The notes under the pieces are model-generated. The model worked only from the letters and a program-made list of their open reading frames with translations. It made no database searches and was not told the DNA's origin. The position numbers were made by a program, and so were the translations under genes. This document shows, piece after piece, positions 637-41,131 of a DNA stretch of 64,000 nt. Source of the DNA: an uncultured Pseudomonadales bacterium (lineage in GTDB: Bacteria > Patescibacteriota > Microgenomatia > UBA1400 > UBA12108); NCBI GenBank assembly GCA_964347565.1, contig CAYFZD010000001.1, forward strand, positions 3,019 through 67,018. The letters run 5' to 3'. The first letter of the stretch is position 1. Each line of letters begins with the position of its first letter.

Positions 637-2544
<1,908 letters not shown>

Positions 2545-26961: not shown

Positions 26962-27855
26962 ATGACCAAACCTAATGTTAGTATTGTCATCCCCTCCTGG
27001 AATAGCGAAAGTCAGCTCAAACAAAATCTACCCTATGTGTTCAAAGCGGCAGAGGCCGTCAAAGCCGAGATCGTGGTAGTGGATGATGCCAGCGCCTACG
27101 ACCAATCAGCTAAATATTTAAGATCACTAGGTAATAAAATTCGTTTTTATGAGAATAAAACTAATGGCGGCTTCTCCTACACCGTCAACCGTGGAGTCGA
27201 GCTCGCTAAAGGCGATATCGTCGTACTCCTCAACACAGACGTGCGACCCTCGCCCGATTGTTTTGTCAATTCGCTCTCCAAATTTTCTGATCCCTCTGTT
27301 TTTGCCGTGACCTTCAATAGTGGCGAGGCTTGGGCTGGTGGGAGATGGGAGGGCGGACTGCTCCAGCACGCCAAAGTAGAGCCAAGCAAAGACAACGCCG
27401 ACAAACAGAATCCAAGCCTCTGGGCCTCCGGTGGACAAGCCGCCTTCGATCGTGAAAAATGGATGTTACTTGGCGGGATGGATCTCCTCTACAAGCCCTT
27501 CTACTGGGAAGACGTCGATCTAGGATACCGAGCCTGGAAGAGGGGTTGGCGCATCATTTGGGATCCCAAGAGTAAGTGTGTCCACGATCATCAAAAAAGT
27601 GTCATTGCCAGCAACTTTACTCCCGAGTTTGTCAAAGCCACCGCTCAGCGCAATCAGTTCCTCTTCGTCTGGAAAAACATCCACAACTCAGAAATGTTAT
27701 GGTCGCATCTGCGCAAAATCCCCAGTTTCCTCAAAAATTACCCTCTCCCATTCCTGCGTGCCCTGCTCCTCTTGCCCTCAGCCTTGCGGGGGAGGGGAGT
27801 CGAGCAGCGCGCCTCCACTCGCAGTGATAGTGAGATACTAAAGATCTGGAGCTAA
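26962..27855 (+). CDS. GT2 glycosyltransferase
   Basis: VSIVIPSWNSESQL, VVVDDASAYD and WEDVDLGYRAWKRGW motifs. Confidence 0.8.
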   Translation: MTKPNVSIVIPSWNSESQLKQNLPYVFKAAEAVKAEIVVVDDASAYDQSAKYLRSLGNKIRFYENKTNGGFSYTVNRGVELAKGDIVVLLNTDVRPSPDCFVNSLSKFSDPSVFAVTFNSGEAWAGGRWEGGLLQHAKVEPSKDNADKQNPSLWASGGQAAFDREKWMLLGGMDLLYKPFYWEDVDLGYRAWKRGWRIIWDPKSKCVHDHQKSVIASNFTPEFVKATAQRNQFLFVWKNIHNSEMLWSHLRKIPSFLKNYPLPFLRALLLLPSALRGRGVEQRASTRSDSEILKIWS

Positions 27856-27857
27856 CT

Positions 27858-29720
27858 ATGGCACCCATGGTCTCGGTCATTATTGTCAACTACAACGCCG
27901 GCAAACTGCTGTCTAAGTCTGTCAACTCTGTCATCAACTTCCCGGGGGTAGAAGTAGTGGTGGCGGACAATGCCTCCCGCGATAACTCGTTTAAAGATCT
28001 AGTCGCTGGTCCCAGAATCCCCAACTTGGTCTTGATCGACAACGGCGCCAATATAGGTTTTGGCAAGGCCGTCAACCAGGCGGTCTTAAAGAGTCACGGC
28101 GAATATGTCTATCTCCTCAACCCTGACGCCTCCCTTAGCAAGACCGCCCTCGCTAGAATGGTGGAGACCGCCAAGGAGTATGGTGATCGTGCCATCATCG
28201 CCCCGCGCCTGGAGAATCCCGATGGTACTCCCCAATCCTCCTGTTACCGCCCACAAACGATTTGGAATGCCGTCAAAGAATACTGGTTAGGCAAATCAGG
28301 GTCATACGCCAAATATCTCCCTACTGGCAAATCTCCGGTGCAGGTCCACGCCGCCGTGGCCGCTGCCTGGCTTGTACCTCGGCAGGTTTGGGACGAGCTC
28401 GGGGGACTCAGCGACCGCTTTTTCCTCTATTTTGAAGATCTAGATATGTGCGACCGTGCGGGATCAGCTGGCATTCCTGTCATCTATGATCCCCGTGCTG
28501 TAGTAAAACACGCCCACGGCGTCTCCTCGCGTACCAACCCGATCGTGCTCAAGTTATTTACGAATTCTGCTTGGGAGTACCACGGCCGTCTCAAAAAAAT
28601 CTTGATCGACTTGATTATTCGTTTGCGAGACTTCTTCGTGCCACCCATTTCCGCCAAAAAAGTCACGGGGATTATCCTCCTCTACACACTGTTTATTCTT
28701 ACTATCGCCGCCCTGGGATATTTTTTACTCCCCGCCCGCTACGCCCCTCTGGCGCTAATTCCTGACGTCTATCATTCTAATTTCTTACTCTGGTCCTGGG
28801 CCAATTTTGACGGAGAACACTATCTTAGTATTGCCCAGCATGGCTATCAAACTATTCGCGGCCAGTCAGAGTACGCCTTCTTCCCACTCTATCCACTCCT
28901 CATTAATCTATTCAGTCGCACGGGTATGAGCGCCTACCTCGCCGCTCACTTAGTCACTCTCATCTCTGGAATAGGGTTTGTCTTTATCCTCTTAAAATGG
29001 GCTTCCAAGTACACCAAAAACCCGCTGACTCTTTTGTGGCTGACTTTGCTCTCACCCGGGGCAATTTATCTCTCTGCCATCTATTCCGAGCCCCTCTTCC
29101 TTCTACTCACTGTCTCCACCTTTTACTTTTGCGATAGACGGGAGTGGGGGAGAGCTACCTTGATGACAGCGCTTGCCACCGCTACCCGCGTCAATGGTAT
29201 TTTTCTCGTTCTATTTTTGCTCCTTAAATCTCGCTCCCCCAAAGTCCTTTTAGGCTTATCCGGAATCTTGGCCTACATTTACTATCTATGGCAAAAAACC
29301 GGCGATGGCCTGGCCTTTTTTCATGCTCAGTCCGGGTGGGAAAAATCCACCCTCACCGCCCCCTGGGTGACGCTAACCAACTATTTTACTGCGCTTACTA
29401 CAGGTTTTGTGCCTGATCTCACTCACCTAGTGGTCGCCATCGAAGTCCTCGTGACAGGGTTACTCATCTATCTACTTATCAAATTTTGGCGCCAGCATAA
29501 ACTAGATTCCGCCTACAAATATTACGCCCTCGCCAATCTCGCACTCCCCCTAGCTACTGGGTCTCTTGGCTCGATGCCTCGTTTCTCACTCGTTCTCTTC
29601 CCACTCTTTCTCATGATCCCCACCCAATCTCGCTCCTCACGCATTGTTCACTCTTCATTATTTATTATCATGAGTATGATAGGTATCATCCTCTTTACGC
29701 GGGGATATTGGTATGCTTAA
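27858..29720 (+). CDS. Fusion: N-terminal GT2 + C-terminal PIG-V-like polytopic membrane domain (family A)
   Basis: N-terminal VSVIIVNYNAGKLL...FEDLDMCDRA (GT2). From about aa 270 there are roughly 9 TM helices with NFDGEHYLSIAQHGYQ...FFPLYPLLINLFS. Confidence 0.75.
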   Translation: MAPMVSVIIVNYNAGKLLSKSVNSVINFPGVEVVVADNASRDNSFKDLVAGPRIPNLVLIDNGANIGFGKAVNQAVLKSHGEYVYLLNPDASLSKTALARMVETAKEYGDRAIIAPRLENPDGTPQSSCYRPQTIWNAVKEYWLGKSGSYAKYLPTGKSPVQVHAAVAAAWLVPRQVWDELGGLSDRFFLYFEDLDMCDRAGSAGIPVIYDPRAVVKHAHGVSSRTNPIVLKLFTNSAWEYHGRLKKILIDLIIRLRDFFVPPISAKKVTGIILLYTLFILTIAALGYFLLPARYAPLALIPDVYHSNFLLWSWANFDGEHYLSIAQHGYQTIRGQSEYAFFPLYPLLINLFSRTGMSAYLAAHLVTLISGIGFVFILLKWASKYTKNPLTLLWLTLLSPGAIYLSAIYSEPLFLLLTVSTFYFCDRREWGRATLMTALATATRVNGIFLVLFLLLKSRSPKVLLGLSGILAYIYYLWQKTGDGLAFFHAQSGWEKSTLTAPWVTLTNYFTALTTGFVPDLTHLVVAIEVLVTGLLIYLLIKFWRQHKLDSAYKYYALANLALPLATGSLGSMPRFSLVLFPLFLMIPTQSRSSRIVHSSLFIIMSMIGIILFTRGYWYA

Positions 29721-31320
29721 GCTCAAGTGGATCCTCATCCTCGCCACCATCCTCCGCCTATTGTGGCTCGACAAAGTCCCCCCTAGTCTCAACTGGGACG
29801 AAGTTTCCATGGGATACACGGCTTACAGTATAGGTGAGACGGGGATGGACGAATGGGGAGAAAGATTGCCAATCTTTTTCCGTTCCTACGGAGAATGGAA
29901 GTCAGCTGTCTATATTTACTTACTCGTGCCCTTTATCAAGATATTTGGACTGAGCGCCTTTGCAGTGCGACTCCCATCGGCTCTGGCGGGTATTCTCGCA
30001 GTCTATCTCACTTACTTGATAGGCCGAAAAATCTATAGTGAAAAAGTCGGTCTCTGGGCTTCTCTTTTCCTCGCCATCTCACCTTGGCATTTGTTACTCT
30101 CCCGCCCTGCCTTCGAAGCCAATGTATCCCTCACTTTGATCCTTGCCGGCCTTTTCTTTTTTCTGCGTTCATCGACCATCGTCCATTGGCCATCGACCAT
30201 TTTGTCTGGGATTTTCCTTGGCCTCGCTCCTCATACTTATAATAGCGCCAAAGTAGTAGTACCATTTTTAGTTCTCTACTTAATTTGGCAGACCAAATTT
30301 TACAAAAATATCAAACAACTTTCACTATTTGTAGTGATACTTACAGTCTTTGCCATCCCTATTATTCTCAATCTTTTTTCTGGACGTGCCCAGTTTCGCT
30401 ATTCTCAGGTCGGGGTCAGCACTGACCAATTCGGCTTAAACACTTTTGTGAATCATCGCAATAACCCTCAATTGCCCAAACTTCTTGGCAAATTAGCCTT
30501 CAATAAATATACCTATACGCTCCACTCAACCTTAAAAAACGGTTTATCCTACCTCAACCCGGCTTTTCTGCTAGTAGAGGCAGGAGATCATACCCAACAT
30601 CATCTCCCTTATCATGGCGTCCTCTATATCGGTGAGTTTGTTTTTGTTCTTTGTGGACTATATCATTTAAGCAAAAGCTCCAATCACCATTTGCGATTGT
30701 TACCTCTCGTCCTGATTTTTCTAGGCATCATCCCAGCCGCCCTCACCCGTGATGTCGGTCACGTTTTGCGCAGTATTTTGACCTTGCCGGGTTGGCAGCT
30801 CCTAGCAGGAATTGGTGTTATTGAACTTCAAAAATTGAAAACTCCGTACTTGAAAATTGTAAATTGGTTATTGGTTATTCAAATTGCTGTCTTTATGACA
30901 GCATATTTTTTCTGGTACCCCACTGCTTACGCTCGCGATTGGCAGTATGGTCTCAAAGAAACGGCTGCCTACGTACAGGAGCATGAGGGTGAGTACGAGG
31001 AAATCGTGGTCTCAAAATGGTTCGGCGAGACCCAGCTCTTTTTGGCTTTTTACAATCGCTGGGACCCTCTCTGGTATATGGAAGCCAACAAGCAAAATTT
31101 ACGCTACGAAACAGAGGGTAAGCTCTGGTTAGACCAGCTCGAAGAGTATAGTATAGGTAAATACACATTTAAGTACCTTAAATTTGGTGAACCCGTTTAC
31201 AAAAAAACGCTCTACGTCGGCAAGTTTGACGATTTTTTTGAAAATCCTCGAACCTTGGAAACGATTAATTATCCTGACGATTCGGTGGCCGTACATATTA
31301 TGGAAGGACTACCTAAATGA
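29713..31320 (+). CDS. GT-C family membrane glycosyltransferase (ArnT/PMT-like)
   Basis: Loop SLNWDEVSMGYTAYSIGETGMDEWG (DE motif), multi-TM body and C-terminal soluble domain. 8-nt overlap with upstream gene. Confidence 0.7.
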   Translation: MLKLKWILILATILRLLWLDKVPPSLNWDEVSMGYTAYSIGETGMDEWGERLPIFFRSYGEWKSAVYIYLLVPFIKIFGLSAFAVRLPSALAGILAVYLTYLIGRKIYSEKVGLWASLFLAISPWHLLLSRPAFEANVSLTLILAGLFFFLRSSTIVHWPSTILSGIFLGLAPHTYNSAKVVVPFLVLYLIWQTKFYKNIKQLSLFVVILTVFAIPIILNLFSGRAQFRYSQVGVSTDQFGLNTFVNHRNNPQLPKLLGKLAFNKYTYTLHSTLKNGLSYLNPAFLLVEAGDHTQHHLPYHGVLYIGEFVFVLCGLYHLSKSSNHHLRLLPLVLIFLGIIPAALTRDVGHVLRSILTLPGWQLLAGIGVIELQKLKTPYLKIVNWLLVIQIAVFMTAYFFWYPTAYARDWQYGLKETAAYVQEHEGEYEEIVVSKWFGETQLFLAFYNRWDPLWYMEANKQNLRYETEGKLWLDQLEEYSIGKYTFKYLKFGEPVYKKTLYVGKFDDFFENPRTLETINYPDDSVAVHIMEGLPK

Positions 31321-32090
31321 ATTTATCGATTGCCCTCGCCGTTTACAACGAAGCCGATAATCTCAGACAATGTCTCGACAGCGTCAAAGCGATTGCGGAT
31401 GAGATCGTGATCGTCGACGGGGAGTCCACCGATTCGACAGTAGCCATTGCCAAAGAGTTTGGGGCCAAAGTATTAAGTGAAGAGAATCGTCCCAACTTCC
31501 ACATCAACAAACAACACGCTATCGACGCTTGTAGCGGCGACTGGATCCTCCAGCTCGACGCCGACGAGCGCGTCTCCACTGCCTTGGCTACCGAGATCAA
31601 GCGTGTGATCAGTGACAAAATGACCAATCCTCCCTCAGCCTACTATCTCAAACGCCGCAACTATTACCTCGGACGCTGGATGAACAAGGGAGGGATGTAT
31701 CCAGACCCTGTTATCCGCCTGTTCCAAAAAGGCCAAGCAAGTCTCCCCCAAGCTAGTGTGCACGAGCTAATGTCAGTCACTGGTACCACCGCTTGGCTCC
31801 AAGAGGATCTACTCCATATCGCTGACCCCAGTTTTGCCCGCTACCTCTTGCGCAGCAACCGCTACACGACCCTCCAGGCTGAGGATTGGCTCAAAGAGGG
31901 GAAGCTGGGCACAGATACTTGGACTCTCTTGCGCTATATGATCCTCAAGCCCTTCTGGCAATTCTGCCTCATCTATTTCCGCCACAAGGGTTTTCAAGAC
32001 GGTTTTCCTGGGTTTGTTTTCGCTTGGTATTCTGGACTCCATCTGGCCAGTTCTTACGTTAAATACTGGGAAAAGAAATCGGCCAAGTAA
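31317..32090 (+). CDS. GT2 glycosyltransferase, WaaE/KdtX-like subfamily
   Basis: LSIALAVYNEADNL, IVIVDGESTDST, LDADERV and tail GFQDGFPGFVFAWYSG. ATGA overlap with upstream gene. Confidence 0.75.
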   Translation: MNLSIALAVYNEADNLRQCLDSVKAIADEIVIVDGESTDSTVAIAKEFGAKVLSEENRPNFHINKQHAIDACSGDWILQLDADERVSTALATEIKRVISDKMTNPPSAYYLKRRNYYLGRWMNKGGMYPDPVIRLFQKGQASLPQASVHELMSVTGTTAWLQEDLLHIADPSFARYLLRSNRYTTLQAEDWLKEGKLGTDTWTLLRYMILKPFWQFCLIYFRHKGFQDGFPGFVFAWYSGLHLASSYVKYWEKKSAK

Positions 32091-32091
32091 T

Positions 32092-34422
32092 ATGCGAAAA
32101 TCATGGGCCTCACATTTACCTTGGCTCTTAATAATTACTGTTGTAGCTATCTTTCTCACCCGCAATCTTTGGGGTACGCGTGCCTGGATAGAAACGCACG
32201 ATGGGATCTTTCATTTGATCAGGCAAGACGCCTTTGTCGATTCCTTCCGTAGCGGCCATTTTCCAGTTCGCTGGGCTGGCTCGCTCGATAACGGCTTTGG
32301 TCTGCCAATCTTTAACTATATATACCCGGGTCCCTACTATCTGGGGACACCACTATCACTGCTGGGACTCAGTGCCAAATGGGTGATTAAGCTGGTCGAG
32401 ATCTCACTCTATCTCTTGGGAGGAATCGGGATCTACACGCTATTTGCCCGCCGCCACAAGCTCTATGCCACCCTCTGTGCACTGCTCTATCTGACGACAC
32501 CCTATTTGCTCCTCAATCTTTTTGTGCGAGGCGCCCTAGGCGAGTTTATGGCGATCTCACTGATACCTTGGGTGTTAGTCTCCCTCATGGATATGCGCTC
32601 TCGCCAAACACTCGCTTGGTACCACCCACTCCCTTACTTCCTCTTGTTTATCAGTCACAATTTTTTGAGTTTTCTCTTTCTCCCGATATACCTCGCCATC
32701 ATATTTTTAGATCGAACTGCTCTCAAGATCGTGATCAAGAGTCTGTTTCTCTCTCTCTTACTCTCAGCCTTTTTTATAGTTCCCATGGTTTTCGAGCGTG
32801 ACTTACTCTACTCGGTTTCCACCGGCAATTTTACCTATAATTTTGCCGATCACTTTGTCTACCCCATGCAGCTTATCTACTCAAAATGGGGGATTGGTCA
32901 CTCCTATGCAGGCACGGGCGACGGGTTCTCGTTTGGACTCGGATTTGCGAATTTAGCCGTACTTTTCACCTCGTTGATCACCCTTTATCTCCGTCGAAGT
33001 CGCGATCTCTTCACTTACACAGGCCTGACTCTAATCGTTATTTTTTTCTTACTCCCTCTATCGCTCCCTATCTGGAAGATGTTACACCCTCTCCAAATCA
33101 TTCAGTTTCCCTGGCGTCTCCTGTCACTCACCACCATTACTATCCCGCTACTATCATTCTTCCTCCTAATGACGTATCACAAGTCTCGCTACCTACCCGC
33201 CGTTGCCACTGGGCTAATTGTCTTTAATCTCTATTTTGCTTCTCTTTACTCCACTCCCGCGTATTTCCAGAACAACGATCAGCTCGCTAACCAGTTATAT
33301 GTTCACTCAGGACAAACTACCACCTCATCTCGCCTGGAGATGCTACCTCGTTGGTCGCCACTTGAAGCGAGATGGATGGGGGAAGAGAACATGCGCATCG
33401 ATCAAGGTTCTTCGCAGATAACTTCCTCTAGCTCCACAGCAAGCAACCTGTCCTTTACCGCAGATGCCAACATGGAAGGCGTTGTATATCGTATTCGTCG
33501 TAATTATTTCCCCTCTTGGGTCGTCCGTGACGAGACGGGGATTAGTTATGCACTCAAGCCCACAGACGATGGAGAAATCAATTTTACAGGTAGATCTGGC
33601 CTCCACACTTACTCGGCTTATGTCGGCAGTACGAGAATCGAACTTCTAGCCAACTGGCTCAGTTTATTTACTCTTATCTATTTACTTAGTATGGCCCTAC
33701 GTCCCAAATTCAAAGATTATCTCGATTCTCGTTTTACGGGTTGGGATATCTCAATTGCCCTCCGCTATCTACCCATAGTGGATGCGCTAAAAAAAATCGC
33801 ACGTCCAAGTGACAAAATCCTCGAAGTTGGTTCCGAAATCACCGGCATTACTCCCTACTATAAGCGCCTTATTACTGGTCTAGATCAAGGCTTTGATTAC
33901 AAGAGGAGCAACAAATACTTAACACCTGTCGAGGGTAGCGCGACGAGCATGCCGTTTAAAGATCGTTCGTTCGATTACGTTATTTCTGTTGATTGTCTCG
34001 AACATATTCCCCCCAAATTACGTGCCAAAGCCGTTAAAGAAATGTTTAGAGTAGCCAAGAAGCAAATTTATCTTACCTTTCCGGTAGGCTCTCACTCTCA
34101 GAATATTGATAAAAGACTAGATCAATATTTCTACGAAAGAAACGGAGAACATTTTACCTATCTCACTGAGCACGTCGATTACGGCCTACCCGGTTTCGAC
34201 TTTATTCCAAATCTAGTAGCCGAGCATGCTGATTGGCAATTAAAAGTCCATGGTAATACAAGCACCTGGCTCTGGGTTCTCCTGCTAAAAATGGGCTTCT
34301 CTAATGTTCCTTGGCAAACGAGTATTTACAGACGTTTGCTCTTACTCCTTCCGCTCCTCAAACACTTTAATTTTGCGCCATGCTATAGGCAGTTATATAT
34401 CATTACCAGGGTTAGCGTATGA
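32092..34422 (+). CDS. Fusion: HD-motif polytopic membrane domain (family C) + C-terminal class I SAM-dependent methyltransferase
   Basis: N-terminal ~560 aa are paralogous to 12026-13480. C-terminal ILEVGSEITGITPYY...FDYVISVDCLEHIPP matches the Methyltransf_11-type motifs I and post-I. The tracked ORF start at 32014 overlaps the upstream gene; the Met at 32092 immediately follows its stop. Confidence 0.65.
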   Translation: MRKSWASHLPWLLIITVVAIFLTRNLWGTRAWIETHDGIFHLIRQDAFVDSFRSGHFPVRWAGSLDNGFGLPIFNYIYPGPYYLGTPLSLLGLSAKWVIKLVEISLYLLGGIGIYTLFARRHKLYATLCALLYLTTPYLLLNLFVRGALGEFMAISLIPWVLVSLMDMRSRQTLAWYHPLPYFLLFISHNFLSFLFLPIYLAIIFLDRTALKIVIKSLFLSLLLSAFFIVPMVFERDLLYSVSTGNFTYNFADHFVYPMQLIYSKWGIGHSYAGTGDGFSFGLGFANLAVLFTSLITLYLRRSRDLFTYTGLTLIVIFFLLPLSLPIWKMLHPLQIIQFPWRLLSLTTITIPLLSFFLLMTYHKSRYLPAVATGLIVFNLYFASLYSTPAYFQNNDQLANQLYVHSGQTTTSSRLEMLPRWSPLEARWMGEENMRIDQGSSQITSSSSTASNLSFTADANMEGVVYRIRRNYFPSWVVRDETGISYALKPTDDGEINFTGRSGLHTYSAYVGSTRIELLANWLSLFTLIYLLSMALRPKFKDYLDSRFTGWDISIALRYLPIVDALKKIARPSDKILEVGSEITGITPYYKRLITGLDQGFDYKRSNKYLTPVEGSATSMPFKDRSFDYVISVDCLEHIPPKLRAKAVKEMFRVAKKQIYLTFPVGSHSQNIDKRLDQYFYERNGEHFTYLTEHVDYGLPGFDFIPNLVAEHADWQLKVHGNTSTWLWVLLLKMGFSNVPWQTSIYRRLLLLLPLLKHFNFAPCYRQLYIITRVSV

Positions 34423-35450
34423 AAATCGCCATTTGCACTAGCCCACTCAAAAACAGCAGTAAAACGCGTGGGGTCGGGGTCTACACGCGCGAGCTCGTGA
34501 ACGCTCTACGCACCAGCTTCCCCACAGACCAGTTTATCGAGACTACGGGCAATCCCTATCAAAGCGGGATTGACCTCGTGCACTACCCCTTCTTTGATCC
34601 CTATTTTTTGACCCTGCCCTGGCGTTATTCGCTCCCCACCCTCATCACAATCCACGACCTCATTCCCCTCAAATATCCCACTCATTTCCCCGCGGGATTA
34701 CGTGGGCGACTCAAATGGGAGGTCCAAAAGATGAGGGCCCGAGCATCTGCTGGGATCATCACCGACTCTCTTAGCTCCGCAACGGATATTCAAGAGATAT
34801 TAAAAATTAAAGAAAACCGTATCCACGTGATCCCCTTGGCGTCTGCTACCGCTCGGACTGCCATGTCTCTTGCTCCTAAAATAAAAAAACTCTACCATCT
34901 TCCCGACCGCTATATTCTCTACGTAGGTGACGTCAACTGGAACAAAAATATCCCAGGACTAATCGACGCTTTCGCCAAGTTAGACAACTCCTCGACTCAT
35001 TTAGTGTTGGTGGGTAAAGTTTTTGCCGATAAGCCAGATATCCCAGAATTCAAAGTGGTGATGGAAGCCATAAAAAAATCTGGCAAATCAGAACTAATTC
35101 ATCTCATTGGCTACGTCCCTAGTCACCACCTCTCTGGGATTTACCGGGAAGCCACGCTCTACTGCCAGCCCTCCTGGGACGAGGGGTTCGGCCTCCCGAT
35201 CCTCGAGGCTATGAAAGCCGGCTGCCCGGTGGTAAGTAGTAATCGCGGCAGTCTGCCCGAGGTGGGAGGGGAGGCTGCACTTTATTTTAACCCTAGCTCA
35301 AATGAGCTCCCAGGAGTTTTACAATCACTCCTCTCCTCTCCCGCCAAGCGGGATTCACTCAAAGAGGCGGGTCTCCTCCAAGTCAAACAATTTACTTGGG
35401 ACAAAACTGCCAAACTGACCAGGGAGATTTATGCCCAAATGGTTGGTTGA
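34419..35450 (+). CDS. GT4 glycosyltransferase
   Basis: GFGLPILEAMKAGCPVVSSNRGSLPEVGGEAA signature. ATGA overlap with upstream gene. Confidence 0.85.
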   Translation: MKIAICTSPLKNSSKTRGVGVYTRELVNALRTSFPTDQFIETTGNPYQSGIDLVHYPFFDPYFLTLPWRYSLPTLITIHDLIPLKYPTHFPAGLRGRLKWEVQKMRARASAGIITDSLSSATDIQEILKIKENRIHVIPLASATARTAMSLAPKIKKLYHLPDRYILYVGDVNWNKNIPGLIDAFAKLDNSSTHLVLVGKVFADKPDIPEFKVVMEAIKKSGKSELIHLIGYVPSHHLSGIYREATLYCQPSWDEGFGLPILEAMKAGCPVVSSNRGSLPEVGGEAALYFNPSSNELPGVLQSLLSSPAKRDSLKEAGLLQVKQFTWDKTAKLTREIYAQMVG

Positions 35451-36474
35451 TATTTTCTCATCGACCATTAACCATTGGCCATTAGCCATTAGTTTTCCAT
35501 ACTACGATACTGATCTTGCCCCCTTTTATTCTCGCTTCTGGGCCACTTTTGCGCATTTTGACGGGATTCATTACTTGCGTATCGCACAACATGGATACGC
35601 CGACTGGGGTAGCCAGGCCTTTTTCCCCCTCTACCCGCTCCTAGTCCATCTACTCTCGCCCTTGTCTCCCTCGCCCCTAGCGGCAGGACTCTTTATTTCC
35701 TGGGCCTCGCTAATTTTTGCCATTGTAGGATTGCGTCGCCTTTTCCCTACTAGACCTCATTTGTTTTGGCTTGTGCTCGCTTTCCCCACGGCCTTTTTCT
35801 TTTTTACTGTTTATACCGAGTCTCTCTTTTTCGCGCTCTCTATTTGGTTTTTTGTCTTTTTATCACGTCAAAAATGGTGGCTCGCCGCTCTCCTCGCTGG
35901 TCTCGCTTCGGCCACCCGCCTGGTCGGTGTTTTCCTCGCCCTTAGTCTCTTGATCGAACTCTTCCGTCACCCATTATCCATGATCCATCGATCATTTATT
36001 GTCCTTTTCTCTGTCTCTGGACTTCTTGCCTACATGTATTTCCTATACCAGACAACCGGTGATCCACTCCTGTTCTTTCACGTCCAACCTATCTTTGGTG
36101 GAGGCAGGAGTGGGGGAGAGCTGATTCTGCTGCCCCAAGTCATATATCGCTACGCCAAAATTTTACTCACGACTAGCTACGACACTTTTGTTTTTTGGCG
36201 CTCATTTCTCGAACTTGGCTTCCTTACTTGGGCACTGTCATCTATTATTAAAAAGTTTAAAACCATACCTCTCTCTGCCAACTTCTATCTCATTCTCTCA
36301 GTTATCTTGCCCACGCTCTCTGGCTCCCTCTCATCCCTCCCTCGTTATCTCCTCGTCCTGACCCCTTGGCTATTGCCAGAGAGTAAGAGGGGGATACTGC
36401 TATACCTCGCCCTCGCCATCCCCCTGTTTGTACTTCTGATCTTACAGTTCGCAAGGGGTATATTTGTGAGCTAG
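35431..36474 (+). CDS. PIG-V-like polytopic membrane protein (family A paralog)
   Basis: HFDGIHYLRIAQHGYADWGSQAFFPLYPLLVHLLS plus about 9 TM helices. Confidence 0.6.
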   Translation: MPKWLVDIFSSTINHWPLAISFPYYDTDLAPFYSRFWATFAHFDGIHYLRIAQHGYADWGSQAFFPLYPLLVHLLSPLSPSPLAAGLFISWASLIFAIVGLRRLFPTRPHLFWLVLAFPTAFFFFTVYTESLFFALSIWFFVFLSRQKWWLAALLAGLASATRLVGVFLALSLLIELFRHPLSMIHRSFIVLFSVSGLLAYMYFLYQTTGDPLLFFHVQPIFGGGRSGGELILLPQVIYRYAKILLTTSYDTFVFWRSFLELGFLTWALSSIIKKFKTIPLSANFYLILSVILPTLSGSLSSLPRYLLVLTPWLLPESKRGILLYLALAIPLFVLLILQFARGIFVS

Positions 36475-36488
36475 GATATACTAGTTAT

Positions 36489-37574
36489 ATGAAAAAAGAT
36501 TTGTTGATCATCACGCTGCTATTCACATTTATTTCCTTGGTATTTTTTCTCTTCGCCAAAACTACGAGGGGAGGACTAGACAGTGTCTACAAAGCCTGGG
36601 ATGGGCCCAGCTATGTGATCGTCGCAGAGAGCCTCTATGTCCCCTCAGACGCTGTCTTGTACAACAGTATTCAGTCACCAGATATCCGCCCAGATTTTAC
36701 TTTCCTCCCCGCGCATTTCCCCCTTTACCCCCTCCTCATCCGGACATTCTCCCCCATTGGCTACTATCAAGCCATGCTCTTCGTCTCGCTTCTTTTTAGT
36801 CTCGCGACTCTGTTGGTCTTCTACCTGCTCGCTCGTCAACTGGGTCTCTCTGCCCCACTGCTGTTGACCTTGCCGATGATCCTCTTGCCACCCCGCTGGT
36901 TTATCATCGCCCATACCGGTAGCTCAGAACCCATTTTTTTCTTTTTTGTTTTGACCAGCCTCTTGTTTTATTTTCGTCGCCTCCCCTGGGCATCCGCGCT
37001 CGCGGCGAGCCTGGCTATGCTGACGCGTCCCCAAGGAGCTCTCCTGGGGCTCGGCTATCTCTTTATTGCTCTCATTCACCTCTACCGCTCTAGAGATCTA
37101 CGGCTCATCTTAAAGCGATACACCCAATACCTCCTCATCCCGCTCACCCTCCTCGCTGTATTTTGGTTCTATCAGCGCCAGACGGGAGATTTTTGGGCTT
37201 TCTTCTCAGCGATCTCGATTTTTCACCATTTTAGACTCAGCCTCTTCCCGACTTTTAATTTTGGGGCGCCTAATATCGAGACCTTTTGGCTTGAGGCCAA
37301 TGTGCTCTACTATTTCCTCTATCTTGCAGCCATCTTACGTTTGTATCACTCTGGTAAGTGGCAATTGGGGACCATCGGTCTCGTCTTTTATCTACCTCTT
37401 TTATTCCTCCAACACACCGACATCAGTCGCTACGCACTCCCCCTGATGCCGCTGGTCTTTATCGCTTTTGCGCAAGGTATGGCGAGCATGCCATTCAACC
37501 TCGCCACCATCCTCAGCATCCCGTCGATCTTCCTCTACACCACCAACTTTATTCTCTATAATCGCGCGCCCTGA
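36489..37574 (+). CDS. PIG-V-like polytopic membrane protein (family A paralog, divergent)
   Basis: AWDGPSYVIVAESLY...AHFPLYPLLIRTFSP plus about 9 TM helices. Confidence 0.55.
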   Translation: MKKDLLIITLLFTFISLVFFLFAKTTRGGLDSVYKAWDGPSYVIVAESLYVPSDAVLYNSIQSPDIRPDFTFLPAHFPLYPLLIRTFSPIGYYQAMLFVSLLFSLATLLVFYLLARQLGLSAPLLLTLPMILLPPRWFIIAHTGSSEPIFFFFVLTSLLFYFRRLPWASALAASLAMLTRPQGALLGLGYLFIALIHLYRSRDLRLILKRYTQYLLIPLTLLAVFWFYQRQTGDFWAFFSAISIFHHFRLSLFPTFNFGAPNIETFWLEANVLYYFLYLAAILRLYHSGKWQLGTIGLVFYLPLLFLQHTDISRYALPLMPLVFIAFAQGMASMPFNLATILSIPSIFLYTTNFILYNRAP

Positions 37575-37596: not shown

Positions 37597-38364
37597 ATGT
37601 CACTCTCTCATTACGCCGAACTAGTGCGCGAGCTCTCCATCCGCGAGATCAAGGCCCGTTACAAGCAATCTGTCCTGGGTTATGCCTGGGTCATTTTGAA
37701 TCCATTTTTCCAGATGCTCGTGATGTCTTTTGTCTTCTCCAAAATCCTGCGATTCCCCACCCTCGGCGTACCCTATGCCATCTTTCTCTACGCTGGGCTC
37801 TTGCCCTGGAATTTGTTTGCTAACTCCCTAGTCAGTAGTACCAACGCTCTCGTCAGTAACGCCTCTCTACTCACGAAGATTTACTTCCCGAGGGAAATCT
37901 TCATCATTAGTACGACCCTCGCCAAGATCGTGGACTTTTTCCTCGCTTCCACAGTCTTCATTCTCTTTATGATTTTTTATCAACTCCCTATTACCTGGAA
38001 TATCCTCTGGTTCATCCCGATTTTCGCCATCCAGCAGCTCTTTACCTATGGTCTCTCTCTCATCCTCGCCTCGCTCAATCTTTTCTACCGAGACATCCAG
38101 TATGTGCTGACCCTGATCGTCATGGTCTGGATGTATTTAACTCCCGTTATCTACCCTACCGAGATCTTCCCCGAGCAATATAAGTGGATCTTCCAGCTCA
38201 ATCCCATGGCCGTGATCATCAACGCGTACAGGCAGACCATCCTGGGAGGGGGTATGCCCAATCTCACGAGTCTGGGGATCGGTCTCTTCGTTTCCCTCCT
38301 TGTCACCTTCGTTGGCATCAAACTATTTAAAAAATTAGAAGGGGTCTTTGCGGATGTAGTGTAG
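37597..38364 (+). CDS. wzm: ABC-2 type polysaccharide/teichoic-acid exporter permease (Wzm/TagG-like)
   Basis: LSIREIKARYKQSVLGYAWVILNPFFQML is the canonical ABC-2 N-terminus. 6 TM helices. Confidence 0.8.
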   Translation: MSLSHYAELVRELSIREIKARYKQSVLGYAWVILNPFFQMLVMSFVFSKILRFPTLGVPYAIFLYAGLLPWNLFANSLVSSTNALVSNASLLTKIYFPREIFIISTTLAKIVDFFLASTVFILFMIFYQLPITWNILWFIPIFAIQQLFTYGLSLILASLNLFYRDIQYVLTLIVMVWMYLTPVIYPTEIFPEQYKWIFQLNPMAVIINAYRQTILGGGMPNLTSLGIGLFVSLLVTFVGIKLFKKLEGVFADVV

Positions 38365-38397
38365 TCGCTTTGCGACATGGCTAATGATTAATGACTT

Positions 38398-38784
38398 ATG
38401 ACTAATATCGACAAAAATAAATATCTTAAGTTCGAAGAACTTCCCGTATGGAAGATTAGTTATCAACTAGCCTTGAATATTTACCGTGCTACAATGAATT
38501 TTCCAAAGGCAGAAGTATTTGGATTAACATCACAGATCAGACGATCCTCTTCTTCTGTTGGGGCAAATATTGCTGAAGGATTTTATAAAAATACTACTCC
38601 AGATCTAGTTCACTTCCTGTACATCGCACGAGGATCTGCAGGAGAAACACTACATCACCTTATGATGTCATACGATTTGAAATATATATCTGACGAGGAT
38701 TTTGTTTCTCTCAAAGACCAAGTAGAAAATACGCTTAGACAACTTTCCGCTTGGATAAAATCATTGGAAAATAAGCATCAATAG
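38398..38784 (+). CDS. Four-helix-bundle protein (23S rRNA intervening-sequence protein family)
   Basis: 128 aa. LPVWKISYQLALNIYRATMNFPK...GANIAEGF...YIARGSAGE pattern of the TIGR02436-type family. AT-rich relative to its neighbours. Inserted between wzm and wzt. Confidence 0.65.
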   Translation: MTNIDKNKYLKFEELPVWKISYQLALNIYRATMNFPKAEVFGLTSQIRRSSSSVGANIAEGFYKNTTPDLVHFLYIARGSAGETLHHLMMSYDLKYISDEDFVSLKDQVENTLRQLSAWIKSLENKHQ

Positions 38785-38785
38785 T

Positions 38786-39538
38786 ATGACCATAAATTTA
38801 GCCATCAGCCATCAGTCATCATCCATTAAAATAACTAACGTAAGTAAGTTATTTTTCAAGCAGGAGCAGAAAACGTTCAAAGAATTCTTGCCCGCCATCT
38901 TCACGGGCAAGAAAACAAGGGAGTGGTTCTGGGCACTCCAGGATATCAATCTGGAAATCAGGGCAGGGGAGACGCTCGGGATCATGGGACCCAATGGGAG
39001 CGGCAAGTCCACCCTCCTCAAGCTGATCGCTGGCGTCTCCCAGCCCACCAAAGGGACTATCACCGCGTTGGGTAGGGTAGCCCCCCTCATCGAGCTCGCG
39101 GCCGGGTTCCACCCCGAGCTCACCGGGCGCGAGAACGTTTATCTCAATGGCATCATCTTGGGTATGTCGCGCGCAGAGGTTGCGGACAAATTTAAGACCA
39201 TCGTCGATTTTGCCGAGCTTTGGGACTTTATCGACTCGCCGGTCAAGCACTACTCCTCTGGTATGTACCTGCGCCTCGCCTTTTCCGTGGCCATCCATAC
39301 TGACCCAGATATTCTCTTACTCGACGAGATCTTGGCGGTAGGGGATGAGCAGTTCCAGGCCAAATGCTTTGCCAAACTACGATCTCTCCAAAAACAAGGG
39401 AAAACCATCATCTACGTCTCACATGACAGCCAATCGGTCCGTGATTTTTGCACTAGGGCTATTCTGATTACCAAATCTAGGATAATCAAGGACGCCACCC
39501 CAAAAGTTATTTGTGATCTCTACTCTGCGCAGTCATAA
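38786..39538 (+). CDS. wzt: ABC exporter ATP-binding protein (Wzt/TagH-like, short form)
   Basis: Walker A GPNGSGKSTLLK, signature YSSGMYLRLAF and Walker B ILLLDEILAVGD. No C-terminal carbohydrate-binding extension. Confidence 0.85.
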   Translation: MTINLAISHQSSSIKITNVSKLFFKQEQKTFKEFLPAIFTGKKTREWFWALQDINLEIRAGETLGIMGPNGSGKSTLLKLIAGVSQPTKGTITALGRVAPLIELAAGFHPELTGRENVYLNGIILGMSRAEVADKFKTIVDFAELWDFIDSPVKHYSSGMYLRLAFSVAIHTDPDILLLDEILAVGDEQFQAKCFAKLRSLQKQGKTIIYVSHDSQSVRDFCTRAILITKSRIIKDATPKVICDLYSAQS

Positions 39539-40541
39539 GTTTTTCGATTGTTTTAAATATATACATCACTTTCTTGCTAGAGTCCGCGGTATATGCGAGC
39601 AAGTCTCCTCTGATCTGAACGTAATGAGCTTTCATGTATTCCAGCTTATCGTCAAAAGTAGCCAGTTTACGCAAATCTATCGACAACTGCTCGTATCCTA
39701 TGTCTGTACAATAATTTACGTTTTTTGGCTCGTAGGAGAGCGATAGAAAAGGGATCCCCATTTGAGTTGCGAATATGAGTGAATGGAGCCTCATGCCTAC
39801 CAAGTACCTGCTGGCTTTTAGCGCATCTAAGTTTGATTTAGTCGGCACACGACTAAAGTACTTCTTTAGTTCGTCTTGATCTGTTTTACCAAAAGAGCCG
39901 CTATAGAGGACTAGTGGGTAAACTTTATCAAACTTTTCTTTGACCAAACTAGCTAATTTATCCGGGTTCCACTTTGGTAAAGGGTAAAAATACTTAATCC
40001 ACGGCCTCTTCTCATACCAGCGTCCTAGTCTTTCATGCCACAGACTGTGTAATTCCAAGTCCCACCAAAACCAATCTCTCAGATTTAGTGTACAGCTATC
40101 GGTTGTTACCTCAGCACTCTTCTGATAAGGGTACATAAATGTAATATCAGGTCCAACTATAACTTTAAAGTGATCACCAAGCATCAGACTACTCTTACGG
40201 TCTCTGACATAAATAAATTCGGCCTTATTTTTTAGTACCTCCAATCCCTCCTTCATATCATCATTCAGCCCATCAGCCTCTATACTTATCCCAATACAGC
40301 CAAAGGGTTTAGTAATCTTGTTTAAAAAATCGACATACCTGCTAAAGCCCCGAAATATCAACCCGCCCCCCCCAATCAATACAAAATCACAAGAATTCAC
40401 TCTCCTTATCTCTAATATAGCCTGTAAAAACGACTTAAAGCGAATTATTTTGTGCTTGTGGAAATATTTCTTAATACAGTAATACATCCTTTCATCACCA
40501 AGATTATTGTTGCCCGACCATCCAATCAGTGCAATTTTCAT
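39507..40541 (-). CDS. Polysaccharide pyruvyl transferase (CsaB/WcaK family)
   Basis: N-terminus MKIALIGWSGNNNLGDERMYY and overall PS_pyruv_trans-like architecture. AT-rich. Confidence 0.65.
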   Translation of the reverse strand: MKIALIGWSGNNNLGDERMYYCIKKYFHKHKIIRFKSFLQAILEIRRVNSCDFVLIGGGGLIFRGFSRYVDFLNKITKPFGCIGISIEADGLNDDMKEGLEVLKNKAEFIYVRDRKSSLMLGDHFKVIVGPDITFMYPYQKSAEVTTDSCTLNLRDWFWWDLELHSLWHERLGRWYEKRPWIKYFYPLPKWNPDKLASLVKEKFDKVYPLVLYSGSFGKTDQDELKKYFSRVPTKSNLDALKASRYLVGMRLHSLIFATQMGIPFLSLSYEPKNVNYCTDIGYEQLSIDLRKLATFDDKLEYMKAHYVQIRGDLLAYTADSSKKVMYIFKTIEKLMTAQSRDHK

Positions 40542-41131
40542 ACAGAATTCTCTCCAAGCACAAAATACATTTTGTACGGCAGCCCCAATCTCTCTGCATT
40601 AATCTCACCCAAACTTACCTTCTCAAAATCATTATTCATCAGAGATGGAATGTCTTTTACCGAGTATTCGACTGCATCATCAACTCCAGGGATCTTTTTT
40701 TTATTGGATCCTTTAATTTTTTCTTTGCTATCGGTATCAGGATAGAACAGGAGAACTCTAGGGGAGATCTTAGCCAGTTTTTGCACCAACTTTGTCCGAG
40801 TAGATCCACTCACGCACTGGATCAATCCGCTATTCCACAAAAACTCAAATTTTTCTTCTATTTTAAATAGATCTCCATAGATGGTCTGACAGAGCACACC
40901 GTGGCGCTTGTATATATCTACGCTTGTCTTCAAACTGTCATCGCGGATATCGTTTAGAGTTACCTGATGCCCATCCATAGCCAAAAAATAGGAGATATGT
41001 CCCGTTCCGCTCCCCACCTCGATTATGTTAGGGTCATCACTCAGATTATCTCTAATTACGTGATATATTGCTTCACTGGCTCTCGTCCACAAGATGGGAT
41101 TGCGCATTTTGTTGTAGTAGAACATAATCAC
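40538..41131 (-). CDS. Class I SAM-dependent methyltransferase
   Basis: Motif I IIEVGSGTGHISYFLAMDGHQVTLNDI. ATGA overlap with the pyruvyl transferase gene. Confidence 0.7.
   Translation of the reverse strand: MIMFYYNKMRNPILWTRASEAIYHVIRDNLSDDPNIIEVGSGTGHISYFLAMDGHQVTLNDIRDDSLKTSVDIYKRHGVLCQTIYGDLFKIEEKFEFLWNSGLIQCVSGSTRTKLVQKLAKISPRVLLFYPDTDSKEKIKGSNKKKIPGVDDAVEYSVKDIPSLMNNDFEKVSLGEINAERLGLPYKMYFVLGENSV

Follow-up and report, generated by a model that had tools for sequence, protein, structure and literature searches.

We identified, in the 64,000-nucleotide stretch of DNA that was analyzed (the window), a gene whose product joins a GT-C-type membrane glycosyltransferase to a class I SAM-dependent methyltransferase (MTase). 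We slightly favor the reading that its product is a bifunctional enzyme that acts from both sides of the membrane in a pathway for cell-surface glycans, and that its MTase would O-methylate a polyprenyl-linked saccharide prior to export. The gene is an unstudied combination of parts that are themselves familiar, and does not amount to a new type of system; our literature searches on PF10131, on GT-C with methyltransferase, on GT-C enzymes of Patescibacteria, and on O-methyl glycans of the CPR found no GT-C–MTase fusion described. The features discussed below are collected in Table 1.

Table 1. Positions of the fused gene, its domains and motifs, and related or neighboring genes in the window
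Feature	Position	Strand	Basis or remark
Unfused GT-C paralogue, 484 aa	12026..13480	+	PF10131 at 40.3 bits; BLASTP
Soluble GT2 glycosyltransferase, 257 aa, upstream	31317..32090	+	PF00535
Whole fused gene	32092..34422	+	Single ORF, 776 aa plus stop
GT-C transmembrane domain, aa 1-386	32092..33249	+	About 10 hydrophobic helices
His36-Asp37 motif, first loop after TM1	32197..32202	+	Asp is the GT-C catalytic candidate
Soluble beta-sandwich domain, aa 387-514	33250..33633	+	AF2 strands 434-511
Last membrane helix and predicted cytoplasmic extension, aa 515-547	33634..33732	+	AF2: one continuous helix 515-547
Class I SAM-dependent MTase domain, aa 548-776	33733..34419	+	
Motif I region ILEVGSEITGI, aa 576-586	33817..33849	+	G580, G585 invariant; E582 in place of central Gly
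Hydrophobic two-helix insert, MTase strands 6/7, aa 725-756	34264..34359	+	AF2 helices 725-736, 740-756
GT4 glycosyltransferase, downstream	34419..35450	+	PF00534 and PF13439; overlaps fused-gene stop by 4 nt; synteny conserved
ABC-2 polysaccharide exporter, same conserved block	37597..39538	+	PF01061, PF00005
Exporter permease	37597-38364	+	Wzm/KpsM-like, below curated cut-offs
Exporter ATPase, 250 aa	38786-39538	+	TagH/Wzt-like, below curated cut-offs; nucleotide-binding domain only

A single gene, fused in many lineages

Translation of the open reading frame, from its ATG at 32092 (one base past the GT2 stop at 32088-32090) to its stop at 34420-34422, revealed no internal stop or frameshift. 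The original prediction had named an interruption at the domain boundary as the sign of two genes; none is present, and the claim of one gene stands. The search for homologous fusions that it proposed was likewise productive: a cluster search recovered the same fusion in 15 further full-length clusters at 51–71% identity. Two of the fused loci (L008 and L009) lie in species-representative genomes. Labeled relatives are assigned to Daviesbacteria, Amesbacteria, Microgenomates, or Curtissbacteria, with a few metagenome-assembled genomes labeled Gammaproteobacteria; going by these labels, the uncultivated source bacterium is probably a member of the Patescibacteria. Related loci were also sought with the close MTase alignment (A3) as query, which returned eight.

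That a sequencing or assembly frameshift joined two genes is scarcely credible, even though close relatives carry two overlapping genes at exactly the same junction. The identical 776-aa protein was found on three contigs of the collection, two of them shown to derive from different sequencing runs; the other fused clusters, uninterrupted as well, come from independent samples; and between clusters the junction residues vary, the former start Met having been lost. An assembly artefact was rejected on these grounds.

The N-terminal part is a GT-C-type glycosyltransferase

Of the families that had been suggested for an HMM scan, Pfam supported one: PTPS_related (PF10131) matched aa 74-416 of the fused protein at 30.8 bits (cut-off 26.4; E 1.5e-7). 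YfhO (PF09586) and DUF6311 gave no match at E ≤ 0.1 either in this protein or in the paralogue at 12026-13480, and membership in those two families was rejected. A few distant homologues carry PF10131 and PF09586 together. PF10131 (clan CL0111) is listed among the GT-C clan as a family of unknown function (PMC7801869), and a literature search on it found no characterized member. In the AF2 model (mean pLDDT 97, pTM 0.91), the polytopic helical bundle superimposes on solved GT-C enzymes, with the protein O-mannosyltransferases Pmt1/2/4 structurally closest to this half. The domain match and the fold support a GT-C-type membrane glycosyltransferase, in agreement with the earlier view of this region as a membrane glycosyl-enzyme.

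The HD motif noted in the original prediction is present as H36-D37, 15 residues past the end of TM1. In the alignment D37 is invariant (83/83 relatives), and H36 occurs in 80 of the 83. As an acidic residue at the equivalent position is a hallmark of GT-C enzymes (PMC7801869), D37 is a candidate for the catalytic residue.

Paralogy with the unfused protein at 12026-13480 was borne out by BLASTP (29% identity, E 7e-47; aa 32-534, through the last membrane helix), over a somewhat shorter part than the N-terminal ~560 aa first proposed (about 536 aa). Kinship with 56896-58656, put forward as a distant relative, was rejected: its reading frame is open on the minus strand alone, with 29 stops when the plus strand is translated, it belongs to no Pfam family, and neither BLASTP (best E 0.14) nor hhalign (probability 0.3%) gave a signal.

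The C-terminal part is a class I methyltransferase

The C-terminal domain matched Methyltransf_11 (PF08241) at aa 605-658 with 38 bits (cut-off 21.2) and PF13649 with 32.6 bits (cut-off 27); only the second half of either profile was covered (positions 43-90 of 95 in PF08241). It has the seven-stranded alpha/beta fold. Judged against motif I (E/D-x-G-x-G-x-G), the segment LEVGSEITG retains E578, G580, and G585, with the central Gly replaced by Glu in the clade of the fused protein, and it aligns to VLDLACGVGG of 1ve3 and ILDIGCGSG of 3sm3. D598 (end of strand 2, motif II) and D634 (the motif IV acid), present in 79/79 family members, align to VGVD and (I/V)D of 1ve3, 3l8d, and 3sm3; R558, Y559, G580, G585, E637, H638, and R644 are also invariant in this set. 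The domain match, the fold, and the motifs, whose absence on proper alignment had been named as the sign against an MTase, support the predicted assignment as a genuine class I methyltransferase.

The domain is probably active, because it is the best-conserved part of the fused proteins (66%, versus 56% for the transmembrane part of the GT-C domain and 48% for the soluble domain). Binding of SAM is only predicted, because E582 takes the place of the central Gly in this clade; across the family, position 582 is Glu in 36/79 members and Gly in 40/79, the latter forming the more distant half. We consider it quite improbable that the domain is dead, serving as a SAM/SAH sensor or docking scaffold, or that it methylates something other than a glycan (a phospholipid head group or a protein). 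The Glu within the GxG loop and the partial match to the Methyltransf_11 profile would fit such a role. Against it, the domain is the most conserved in the protein; neither D598, the acid that binds ribose, nor D634, E637, and H638 of motif IV vary; and E582 is itself strictly conserved in the close clade (as the invariant E46 of A3), suggesting function rather than decay. Catechol O-methyltransferase has a Tyr at the same position of motif I, yet is active. Further, the fusion partners of the family are glycan-assembly enzymes, with one exception (a B12/radical-SAM protein).

The domain belongs to a family of 541 clusters (E ≤ 1e-30) and can be recognized by several features of its own: an N-terminal ALRYxP helix, a GS(G/E)xxG motif I, the hydrophobic insert, and a C-terminal YR. 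The best Foldseek matches were the sugar O-methyltransferases RebM (E 6.7e-7) and AtmM (E 1.6e-6), but such matches are generic (E about 1e-6, 15–21% identity), and the best NCBIfam match, the mycofactocin oligosaccharide methyltransferase MftM, reached only 27 bits against a cut-off of 200, so that the domain is not a member. RebM, AtmM, and MftM share the class I fold with it but, at 15–21% identity, are soluble enzymes acting on small-molecule glycosides.

The insert, which is conserved in stand-alone relatives, includes one helix (725-736) with a mean hydrophobicity of 0.64, and is a candidate membrane-contact patch. UbiG, likewise a class I O-methyltransferase, also carries an extra hydrophobic insertion (PMC4796655), for which a contact with the membrane is proposed that would let the enzyme reach its lipid-anchored substrate. 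The UbiG insertion lies between strand 4 and helix 10, that of the present domain between strands 6 and 7, and the substrate class differs; the likeness is one of analogy only.

Probable membrane topology, with the two active sites on opposite faces

The loop charges of the GT-C family follow the positive-inside rule: family-wide, the short loops assigned inside carry +1.6 to +2.6, whereas EL1, 234-285, and 387-514 are at or below zero. Hydropathy yielded 11 hydrophobic segments, the wrong parity for a protein with both termini inside; from the family-wide charge bias, segment 179-206 would have to be a hairpin or re-entrant if all positive loops are inside. An N-in topology and the loop charges would place D37 outside the cell. 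The beta-sandwich, with its net charge at or below zero throughout the family and its flanking positive loops assigned inside, is likely extracytoplasmic.

The evidence that the MTase domain is cytoplasmic is strong, because (i) unfused GT-C relatives possess the same last helix, followed by a basic tail and the end of the protein, (ii) the loop charges agree, (iii) stand-alone MTase relatives (50–64% identity) have nothing ahead of the MTase fold, neither a signal peptide nor a transmembrane segment, and (iv) in other proteins a member of this MTase family is joined to a cytoplasmic GT2 or GT4 enzyme, or to MurJ. The location of the domain, which had been called a topological puzzle given that SAM is cytoplasmic, ceases to be one: an extra C-terminal helix, found in unfused relatives as well, returns the chain to the SAM-containing cytoplasm. 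The GT-C and MTase active sites would then lie on opposite faces of the membrane; therefore transfer and methylation cannot be one coupled catalytic step, contrary to the coupled glycosyl transfer and O-methylation that had been envisaged.

The glycan locus and its variable slot

About 30 of the first 34 large open reading frames in the window are glycan genes. The block at 26962-35450 comprises GT2, GT2-PIG-V, PMT_2, and a further GT2, together with the fused gene and the GT4. A small GT2 gene lies directly upstream of the GT-C gene in all relatives (synteny in L003-L005 and L016-L019). In the window its product lacks a membrane segment, and its NCBIfam matches, which include the dolichyl-P-hexose transferases AglJ and PpgS, fall far below curated cut-offs. 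The cluster also contains a Wzx-like flippase and a GT2-GtrA fusion (4078-5292), 27 kb away, with ArnC/PgfS/PpgS-like matches below cut-offs. An inserted 23S_rRNA_IVP gene separates the exporter permease from its ATPase.

Three SDR genes are found some 28–31 kb upstream of the fused gene. The prediction of rmd, gmd, and uxs among them held only for gmd, where the open reading frame at 1375-2544 matched TIGR01472 at the family level (458 bits, cut-off 415); the other two fell below every curated cut-off, and their identification as uxs or rmd was rejected. Nothing in this analysis favors the methylated sugars that had been suggested, 3-O-Me-Rha and 2-O-Me-Xyl.

The slot between the GT-C and GT4 genes occurs in four states: the MTase may be fused to the GT-C protein or encoded by a gene of its own, or the slot may be empty (L003, L017, L018, and L019) or occupied by a YfhO gene (L016). 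Because the slot varies between relatives, methylation is likely an optional, lineage-variable decoration.

Origin of the fusion and other contexts of the MTase family

In the split loci L004 and L005, the MTase gene begins in a different frame, with its ATG overlapping the stop of the GT-C gene (LAYVQKRSR* versus MFKNARASFKHYL), where the window reads through; comparison of the frames places the junction near aa 530-545. By these comparisons, the fusion is the product of a frame change that joined the GT-C gene to an overlapping MTase gene downstream, a step made feasible by a GT-C C-terminus that lay in the cytoplasm beforehand. Its presence in the 15 further clusters and in L008 and L009 shows the fusion to be old.

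Elsewhere, the MTase family has other fusion partners, among them soluble GT2 (P0344) and GT4 (P0309) enzymes that use nucleotide sugars, and a bona fide MurJ; all of the partners handle polyprenyl-linked glycans save the B12/radical-SAM protein. Stand-alone MTase genes were found directly 3' of a gene encoding a polytopic membrane protein of 400–585 aa (L006, L007, L010, L011, L012, and L014).

It is conceivable, if improbable, that the fusion is incidental, the MTase serving the downstream GT4 or the pathway generally and being anchored without specific coupling. It might have become attached merely since the genes overlapped and the GT-C C-terminus was cytoplasmic: in split loci the MTase gene lies between the GT-C and GT4 genes and overlaps each of them, a one-step frame change suffices, and the family includes the GT4–MTase fusion P0309. 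In a neighbor-joining tree of the GT-C proteins, which carries no support values, fused, split, and MTase-less forms are interleaved, which fits such a history. Nevertheless, the fusion has been kept in many lineages over divergence to ~51% identity, and the repeated placement of stand-alone MTases after polytopic membrane-protein genes suggests that membrane partners matter.

Proposed mechanism

In the reading that we favor, the GT-C active site (the His36-Asp37 loop and the conserved R146/E151 and H189/N190) would sit on the outer face and, by family membership, would take a sugar off a polyprenyl-phosphate donor and attach it to an acceptor outside the cytoplasm. The final membrane helix would bring the chain back into the cytoplasm and hold the MTase there, with some twelve residues between it and the inner surface of the membrane. 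There the MTase would most likely O-methylate a polyprenyl-linked saccharide of the same pathway that still faces the cytoplasm, the first-choice substrate being the nascent lipid-linked oligo- or polysaccharide and the alternative a lipid-linked monosaccharide donor. Either the Wzx-like flippase or the ABC-2 transporter of the cluster would next flip or export the methylated product. The fusion partners, the placement of the stand-alone genes, the RebM and AtmM matches, and the hydrophobic insert all point to a glycan substrate close to the membrane. Obligatory coupling between the two halves is disfavored, as the locus exists without an MTase and the active-site residues of GT-C are alike whether or not a locus has one.

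The monosaccharide alternative leads to a doubtful proposal, a "four-component" version of a Gtr-type system, in which the adjacent GT2 supplies a polyprenyl-phosphate monosaccharide, the MTase methylates it, the product is flipped, and the GT-C domain transfers the methylated sugar outside. GT-C enzymes use polyprenyl-phosphate sugar donors, and lipid-linked donors are known to be edited before use, as with undP-Ribf epimerization and DprE1/E2 (PMC11127046). The constant position of the small GT2 and its weak AglJ/PpgS matches are consistent with this proposal, P0344 joins a similar GT2 to the MTase family, and a physical link between the MTase and the donor-consuming enzyme would make clear sense of the fusion. 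However, orthologous GT-C proteins occur in loci without any MTase, the upstream GT2 has neither a membrane segment nor a match near the cut-offs, and most other MTase partners are chain-elongating GT2/GT4 enzymes or a flippase, not donor synthases. In a co-variation test for altered donor specificity, only three alignment columns (157, 185, and 264) separated GT-C proteins with and without an MTase, weakly, and none is a conserved active-site position; the test appears to argue mildly against donor methylation and is otherwise uninformative.

Comparison with known systems

We compared the locus with (i) three-component systems (GtrA/GtrB/Gtr*, CsbB/GtcA/YfhO, and ArnC/ArnT) and (ii) enzymes that join a methyltransferase to glycan machinery. 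With the former the fused protein shares a conserved acid in its first outer loop, together with a soluble domain on the same side, and its cluster offers comparable surroundings in the GT2 genes, the GT2-GtrA fusion, the Wzx-like flippase, and the ABC-2 exporter. Tested for the three components, the locus has the GT-C enzyme, an adjacent GT2 (31317-32090) with weak matches, and a GtrA domain only in the GT2 fusion 27 kb off. Unlike PMT, YfhO, and ArnT, the protein belongs to PTPS_related; unlike these systems, it has the extra C-terminal helix that returns the chain to the cytoplasm, and it carries a cytoplasmic MTase.

WsaE of Geobacillus stearothermophilus and WbdD of E. coli O8/O9a are bifunctional or chain-terminating enzymes of ABC-transporter-dependent glycan pathways. 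Like the fused protein, they combine a cytoplasmic SAM-dependent MTase with glycan machinery, in a locus with a Wzm/Wzt-type exporter, and in both cases a lipid-linked glycan would be methylated ahead of export (PMC11127046 also covers WbdD). The partner in the fused protein, however, is a GT-C domain on the opposite side of the membrane and not a GT-A or GT-B domain; Pfam detected neither a kinase nor an additional glycosyltransferase domain, the AF2 model contains no long coiled coil or ruler, and the 250-aa Wzt-like ATPase has no carbohydrate-binding module with which to read a terminal cap. A WbdD-like chain terminator was rejected because the kinase, the coiled-coil ruler, and the cap-reading module of Wzt are all missing.

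Significance

The fused, split, and absent states at one slot act as a "Rosetta stone" that ties the uncharacterized MTase family to membrane glycan steps, and the protein would be a clean example of active sites on both membrane faces in one polypeptide. If the MTase were inactive or its attachment incidental, the gene would be only a tolerated fusion. Were the protein instead to prepare its own donor, with the cytoplasmic domain O-methylating a polyprenyl-phosphate sugar that the GT-C domain installs on a surface glycan or protein outside (an unlikely prospect), extracytoplasmic glycosylation would have a way of acquiring O-methyl sugars that is so far undescribed, and the MTase family would be a general editor of polyprenyl-linked saccharides, possibly including lipid II in the MurJ fusions. 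The protein offers a tractable construct with which to study what coordinates the editing of lipid-linked sugars in the cytoplasm with their transfer outside it. In Patescibacteria, gene clusters of very large size are given over to surface glycans, and the variation at this slot predicts that their methylated surface sugars are lineage specific.

The fused gene and its product

The original prediction of a membrane protein fused to a class I SAM-dependent methyltransferase (MTase) was correct in both the single ORF and the domain identities: the gene has 776 codons and begins, with an ATG, one base past the TAA that ends the GT2 gene upstream; its stop and the ATG that opens the next gene, a GT4, overlap by 4 nt. 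Pfam assigned the N-terminal part to PTPS_related (PF10131), which belongs to the GT-C clan and is uncharacterised (PMC7801869). Neither YfhO nor DUF6311, both of which had been suggested, was matched in the same scan. The proposed paralogy with 12026-13480 was borne out (29% identity, E 7e-47, aa 32-534). The suggested third relative, 56896-58656, is open only on the minus strand and is unrelated to the GT-C family (BLASTP E 0.14; profile comparison probability 0.3%). An AlphaFold2 model based on 146 homologues (mean pLDDT 97, pTM 0.91) yielded the structural elements listed in the table.

The identical 776-aa protein was found on three contigs of the searched collection, two of them shown to come from different runs, and the same architecture recurred in 15 other 90%-identity clusters (762-783 aa, 51-71% identical). 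The joining of a GT-C domain to a class I methyltransferase through a membrane helix is thus conserved. Full-text literature searches found neither a description of a GT-C-methyltransferase fusion nor a characterised PF10131 member; the protein is a new variant assembled from known parts.

Features of the window and of the fused protein
Feature	Position	Length	Assignment
GDP-mannose 4,6-dehydratase	1375-2544 (+)	389 aa	Mechanical ORF; GTG start; 200-nt overlap with preceding gene; match begins at aa 71
GT2-GtrA protein	4078-5292 (+)		GT2 joined to GtrA/DPMS transmembrane domain (PF00535 + PF04138)
Unfused paralogue	12026-13480		GT-C
GT2-PIG-V fusion	27858-29720 (+)	620 aa	GT2 (aa 6-126); PIG-V-type GT-C (Mannosyl_trans2, aa 308-454)
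Fused gene	32092-34422 (+)	776 aa	GT-C and MTase
PTPS_related	aa 74-416 of fused protein		PF10131; 30.8 bits, cut-off 26.4 (Pfam)
Methyltransf_11	aa 605-658 of fused protein		38 bits, cut-off 21.2 (Pfam); Methyltransf_25 also assigned
Membrane helices, ~10	up to aa 386		AlphaFold2 model
All-beta domain	aa 434-511		AlphaFold2 model
Single continuous helix	aa 515-547		AlphaFold2 model
Seven-stranded alpha/beta domain	after helix 515-547		AlphaFold2 model
Two extra hydrophobic helices	aa 725-736, 740-756		AlphaFold2 model; between last two strands of alpha/beta domain
Polytopic membrane protein	35431-36474 (+)	347 aa	No Pfam family
Polytopic membrane protein	36489-37574 (+)	361 aa	No Pfam family
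23S_rRNA_IVP	38398-38784 (+)	128 aa	PF05635, E 5e-36
Pyruvyl transferase, then methyltransferase	39507-41131 (-)	second: 197 aa	Polysaccharide pyruvyl transferase (PF04230); Methyltransf_25
Unrelated ORF	56896-58656 (-)	586 aa	No Pfam family at E <= 0.01

Methyltransferase motifs

The MTase motifs, whose absence would have refuted the original reading, could be traced when the family profile was aligned to solved enzymes, with one deviation in motif I. Motif I (iLeVGSgslG) aligned to VLDLACGVGG (1ve3) and ILDIGCGSG (3sm3), vtGvD to the acid of strand 2, gsalkLpF to GDARKLSF, and visvDmLEHi to motif IV. All of 79 family members share R558, Y559, G580, G585, D598, D634, E637, H638, R644, Y765 and R766. 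The sole deviation falls on the middle Gly of GxG, which is replaced by E582. Of the 79 members, 36 (the close clade) have Glu at this position and 40 (the more distant half) have Gly. It is possible that the domain is non-catalytic or serves a non-glycan role; the strict conservation of E582 wherever it is present speaks for function over decay, and catechol O-methyltransferase has Tyr at the same motif I position, yet is active. The MTase is also the best-conserved region of the 16 fused proteins (mean pairwise identity 66%; the membrane part of the GT-C domain reaches 56% and the soluble outer domain 48%).

Topology

The location of the MTase had been considered a topological puzzle, SAM being cytoplasmic. 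Four lines of evidence resolve it, strongly indicating a cytoplasmic MTase and an external GT-C site: (i) stand-alone MTase relatives, 50-64% identical to the domain, start at the very point where, in the fused protein, the domain emerges from the last helix, and have neither signal peptide nor membrane segment; (ii) unfused GT-C relatives, including the window's paralogue, already have the last helix and end shortly after it, in a short Lys/Arg-rich tail in those sampled; (iii) among 83 GT-C relatives, a net charge of +1.6 to +2.6 is seen in the short loops 119-122, 167-179, 205-213, 300-306 and 361-368, as well as in the segment that follows the last helix, and a neutral or negative one in the first loop (23-94), in loop 234-285 and in the beta domain (387-514), a distribution that fits the positive-inside rule with N-in, beta domain out and C-in; and (iv) in other organisms the MTase family is fused to soluble GT2 and GT4 enzymes that depend on nucleotide sugars, and to MurJ. 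One caveat is that a plain hydropathy count gave 11 hydrophobic segments, a parity that does not fit N-in together with C-in. To agree with the charge pattern, segment 179-206, a pair of short helices with a kink at the invariant H189-N190, has to be a hairpin or re-entrant element. As transfer would occur outside and methylation inside, the coupled reaction originally proposed cannot be one catalytic step, and any functional coupling of the two would be hypothetical.

Origin of the fusion

The gene order around the fused gene recurs in relatives as a conserved block of GT2, GT2-PIG-V fusion, PMT_2, small GT2, PTPS_related GT-C, a variable slot, and GT4; in many cases an ABC-2 exporter and two polytopic proteins without annotation come next. 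The slot, which in the window lies at the 34419 boundary, holds the fused MTase in the window and in L008 and L009, the two fused loci among species-representative genomes; a separate 243-244 aa MTase gene, overlapping the GT-C gene end in another frame, in L004 and L005; an 831-aa YfhO-family (GT-C) gene in L016; and nothing in L003, L017, L018 and L019. Within a block that is otherwise conserved, this position appears to be a hotspot at which the glycan diversifies.

The fused protein descends from overlapping GT-C and MTase genes. At the L004 junction the GT-C frame ends ...LAYVQKRSR* and the overlapping frame reads MFKNARASFKHYL..., while the window reads ...LLSMALRPKFKDYL... in a single frame, so that one frame change suffices to explain the fusion; other fused proteins have lost the former MTase start Met. 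In a rough neighbour-joining tree of the GT-C domain, built without support values, fused and short forms are interleaved, and an MTase-less group (P0018-P0025) is nested within a fused clade, suggesting that fusion, fission and loss occurred repeatedly. The fusion itself is possibly neutral and incidental.

The methyltransferase family

When 1.84 billion representatives were searched with the family profile, 541 proteins scored E <= 1e-30; the best 150 of these are mostly stand-alone proteins of 220-290 aa, and the longer ones are fusions. The family signature is ALRYxP ... GS(G/E)xxG ... DxLEH ... YR, and most of the relatives that carry a taxonomic label belong to Patescibacteria (Daviesbacteria, Amesbacteria, Microgenomates, Curtissbacteria). 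Besides PTPS_related GT-C and a second methyltransferase, fusion partners include three kinds of GT2 (EpsE/TuaG/WcaA-like, MftF-like, and one resembling the window's upstream GT2 at 28% identity, E 4e-11), GT4, MurJ and a B12-binding/radical-SAM protein (P0331, P0258, P0277, P0296, P0309 and P0344, none in the window). The MurJ partner passes the curated model for this lipid II flippase, and its fusion raises the question of whether lipid II or another flipped intermediate is methylated. In six loci (L006, L007, L010, L011, L012 and L014), a stand-alone MTase gene lies directly 3' of a gene for a 400-585 aa polytopic membrane protein (PMT_2, Wzy_C-like or unannotated), frequently overlapping it; another methyltransferase gene intervenes in L013, and a 307-aa gene in L015. 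Such adjacency is partly expected by chance, because these clusters are rich in polytopic genes.

The surrounding glycan cluster

Between ~6.4 and 39.5 kb nearly all ORFs are plus-strand and tightly packed or overlapping (GC 0.45-0.51), and, besides the PIG-V fusion, genes of GT-C type number at least eight there (five PMT_2, two PTPS_related, one GT87); past ~40 kb, GC falls to 0.39-0.45 and strands alternate. The GT2-PIG-V protein, which L003, L004, L016 and L019 have at the corresponding place of the conserved block, is a candidate second "two-sided" fusion, whose GT would be cytoplasmic and whose GT-C would face outward. Its GT-C half matches the AZOBR_p60025 "cell surface glycopolymer formation" domain, to which the consecutive 347- and 361-aa proteins have their only, weak NCBIfam matches; counterparts of these two are conserved downstream of GT4 in L003 and L004. 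The 23S_rRNA_IVP gene lies between the ABC-2 permease and ATPase genes, which are adjacent or overlapping, with no insert, in L003, L004 and L019. The pyruvyl transferase and Methyltransf_25 genes are further glycan-tailoring genes at the cluster edge, and L019 has a pyruvyl transferase at the same place. The GT2-GtrA protein, whose NCBIfam matches (PgfS, ArnC, PpgS, AglJ) all fall under cut-off, is a candidate polyprenyl-phosphate-sugar synthase with a flippase-like domain, and could supply donors to the cluster's many GT-C enzymes. Because the dehydratase match begins internally, the true start of 1375-2544 is probably ~210 nt downstream.

Proposed function

By analogy, the fused protein would resemble the GT-C component of Gtr/YfhO/ArnT-type extracytoplasmic glycosylation, to which it adds a cytoplasmic tailoring domain. 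It is also reminiscent of WsaE and WbdD, the GT-methyltransferases of ABC-transporter-dependent pathways; however, it has no kinase, coiled coil, GT-A or GT-B domain and does not belong to that group, and no carbohydrate-binding module is present in the window's Wzt-like ATPase (250 aa). The best NCBIfam match of the MTase, MftM, scored 27 bits against a cut-off of 200.

We propose that the MTase works at the inner leaflet, methylating a polyprenyl-linked saccharide that is then flipped or exported, and that the methyl group would be an optional decoration on a conserved glycan backbone. The specific methylated sugars first put forward (3-O-Me-Rha, 2-O-Me-Xyl) found no support. As substrate we slightly favor the nascent lipid-linked chain, both because most fusion partners are chain-building GT2/GT4 enzymes or a flippase, and because the GT-C active-site columns are the same whether the MTase is present or absent. 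A live and more novel alternative is that the MTase methylates the GT-C donor, a polyprenyl-P-sugar; there is precedent for lipid-linked donors being edited before a GT-C enzyme uses them, in undP-Ribf epimerisation and in DprE1/E2 (PMC11127046). The series of fused, split and absent forms ties an unstudied methyltransferase family to membrane glycan-assembly steps in Patescibacteria.
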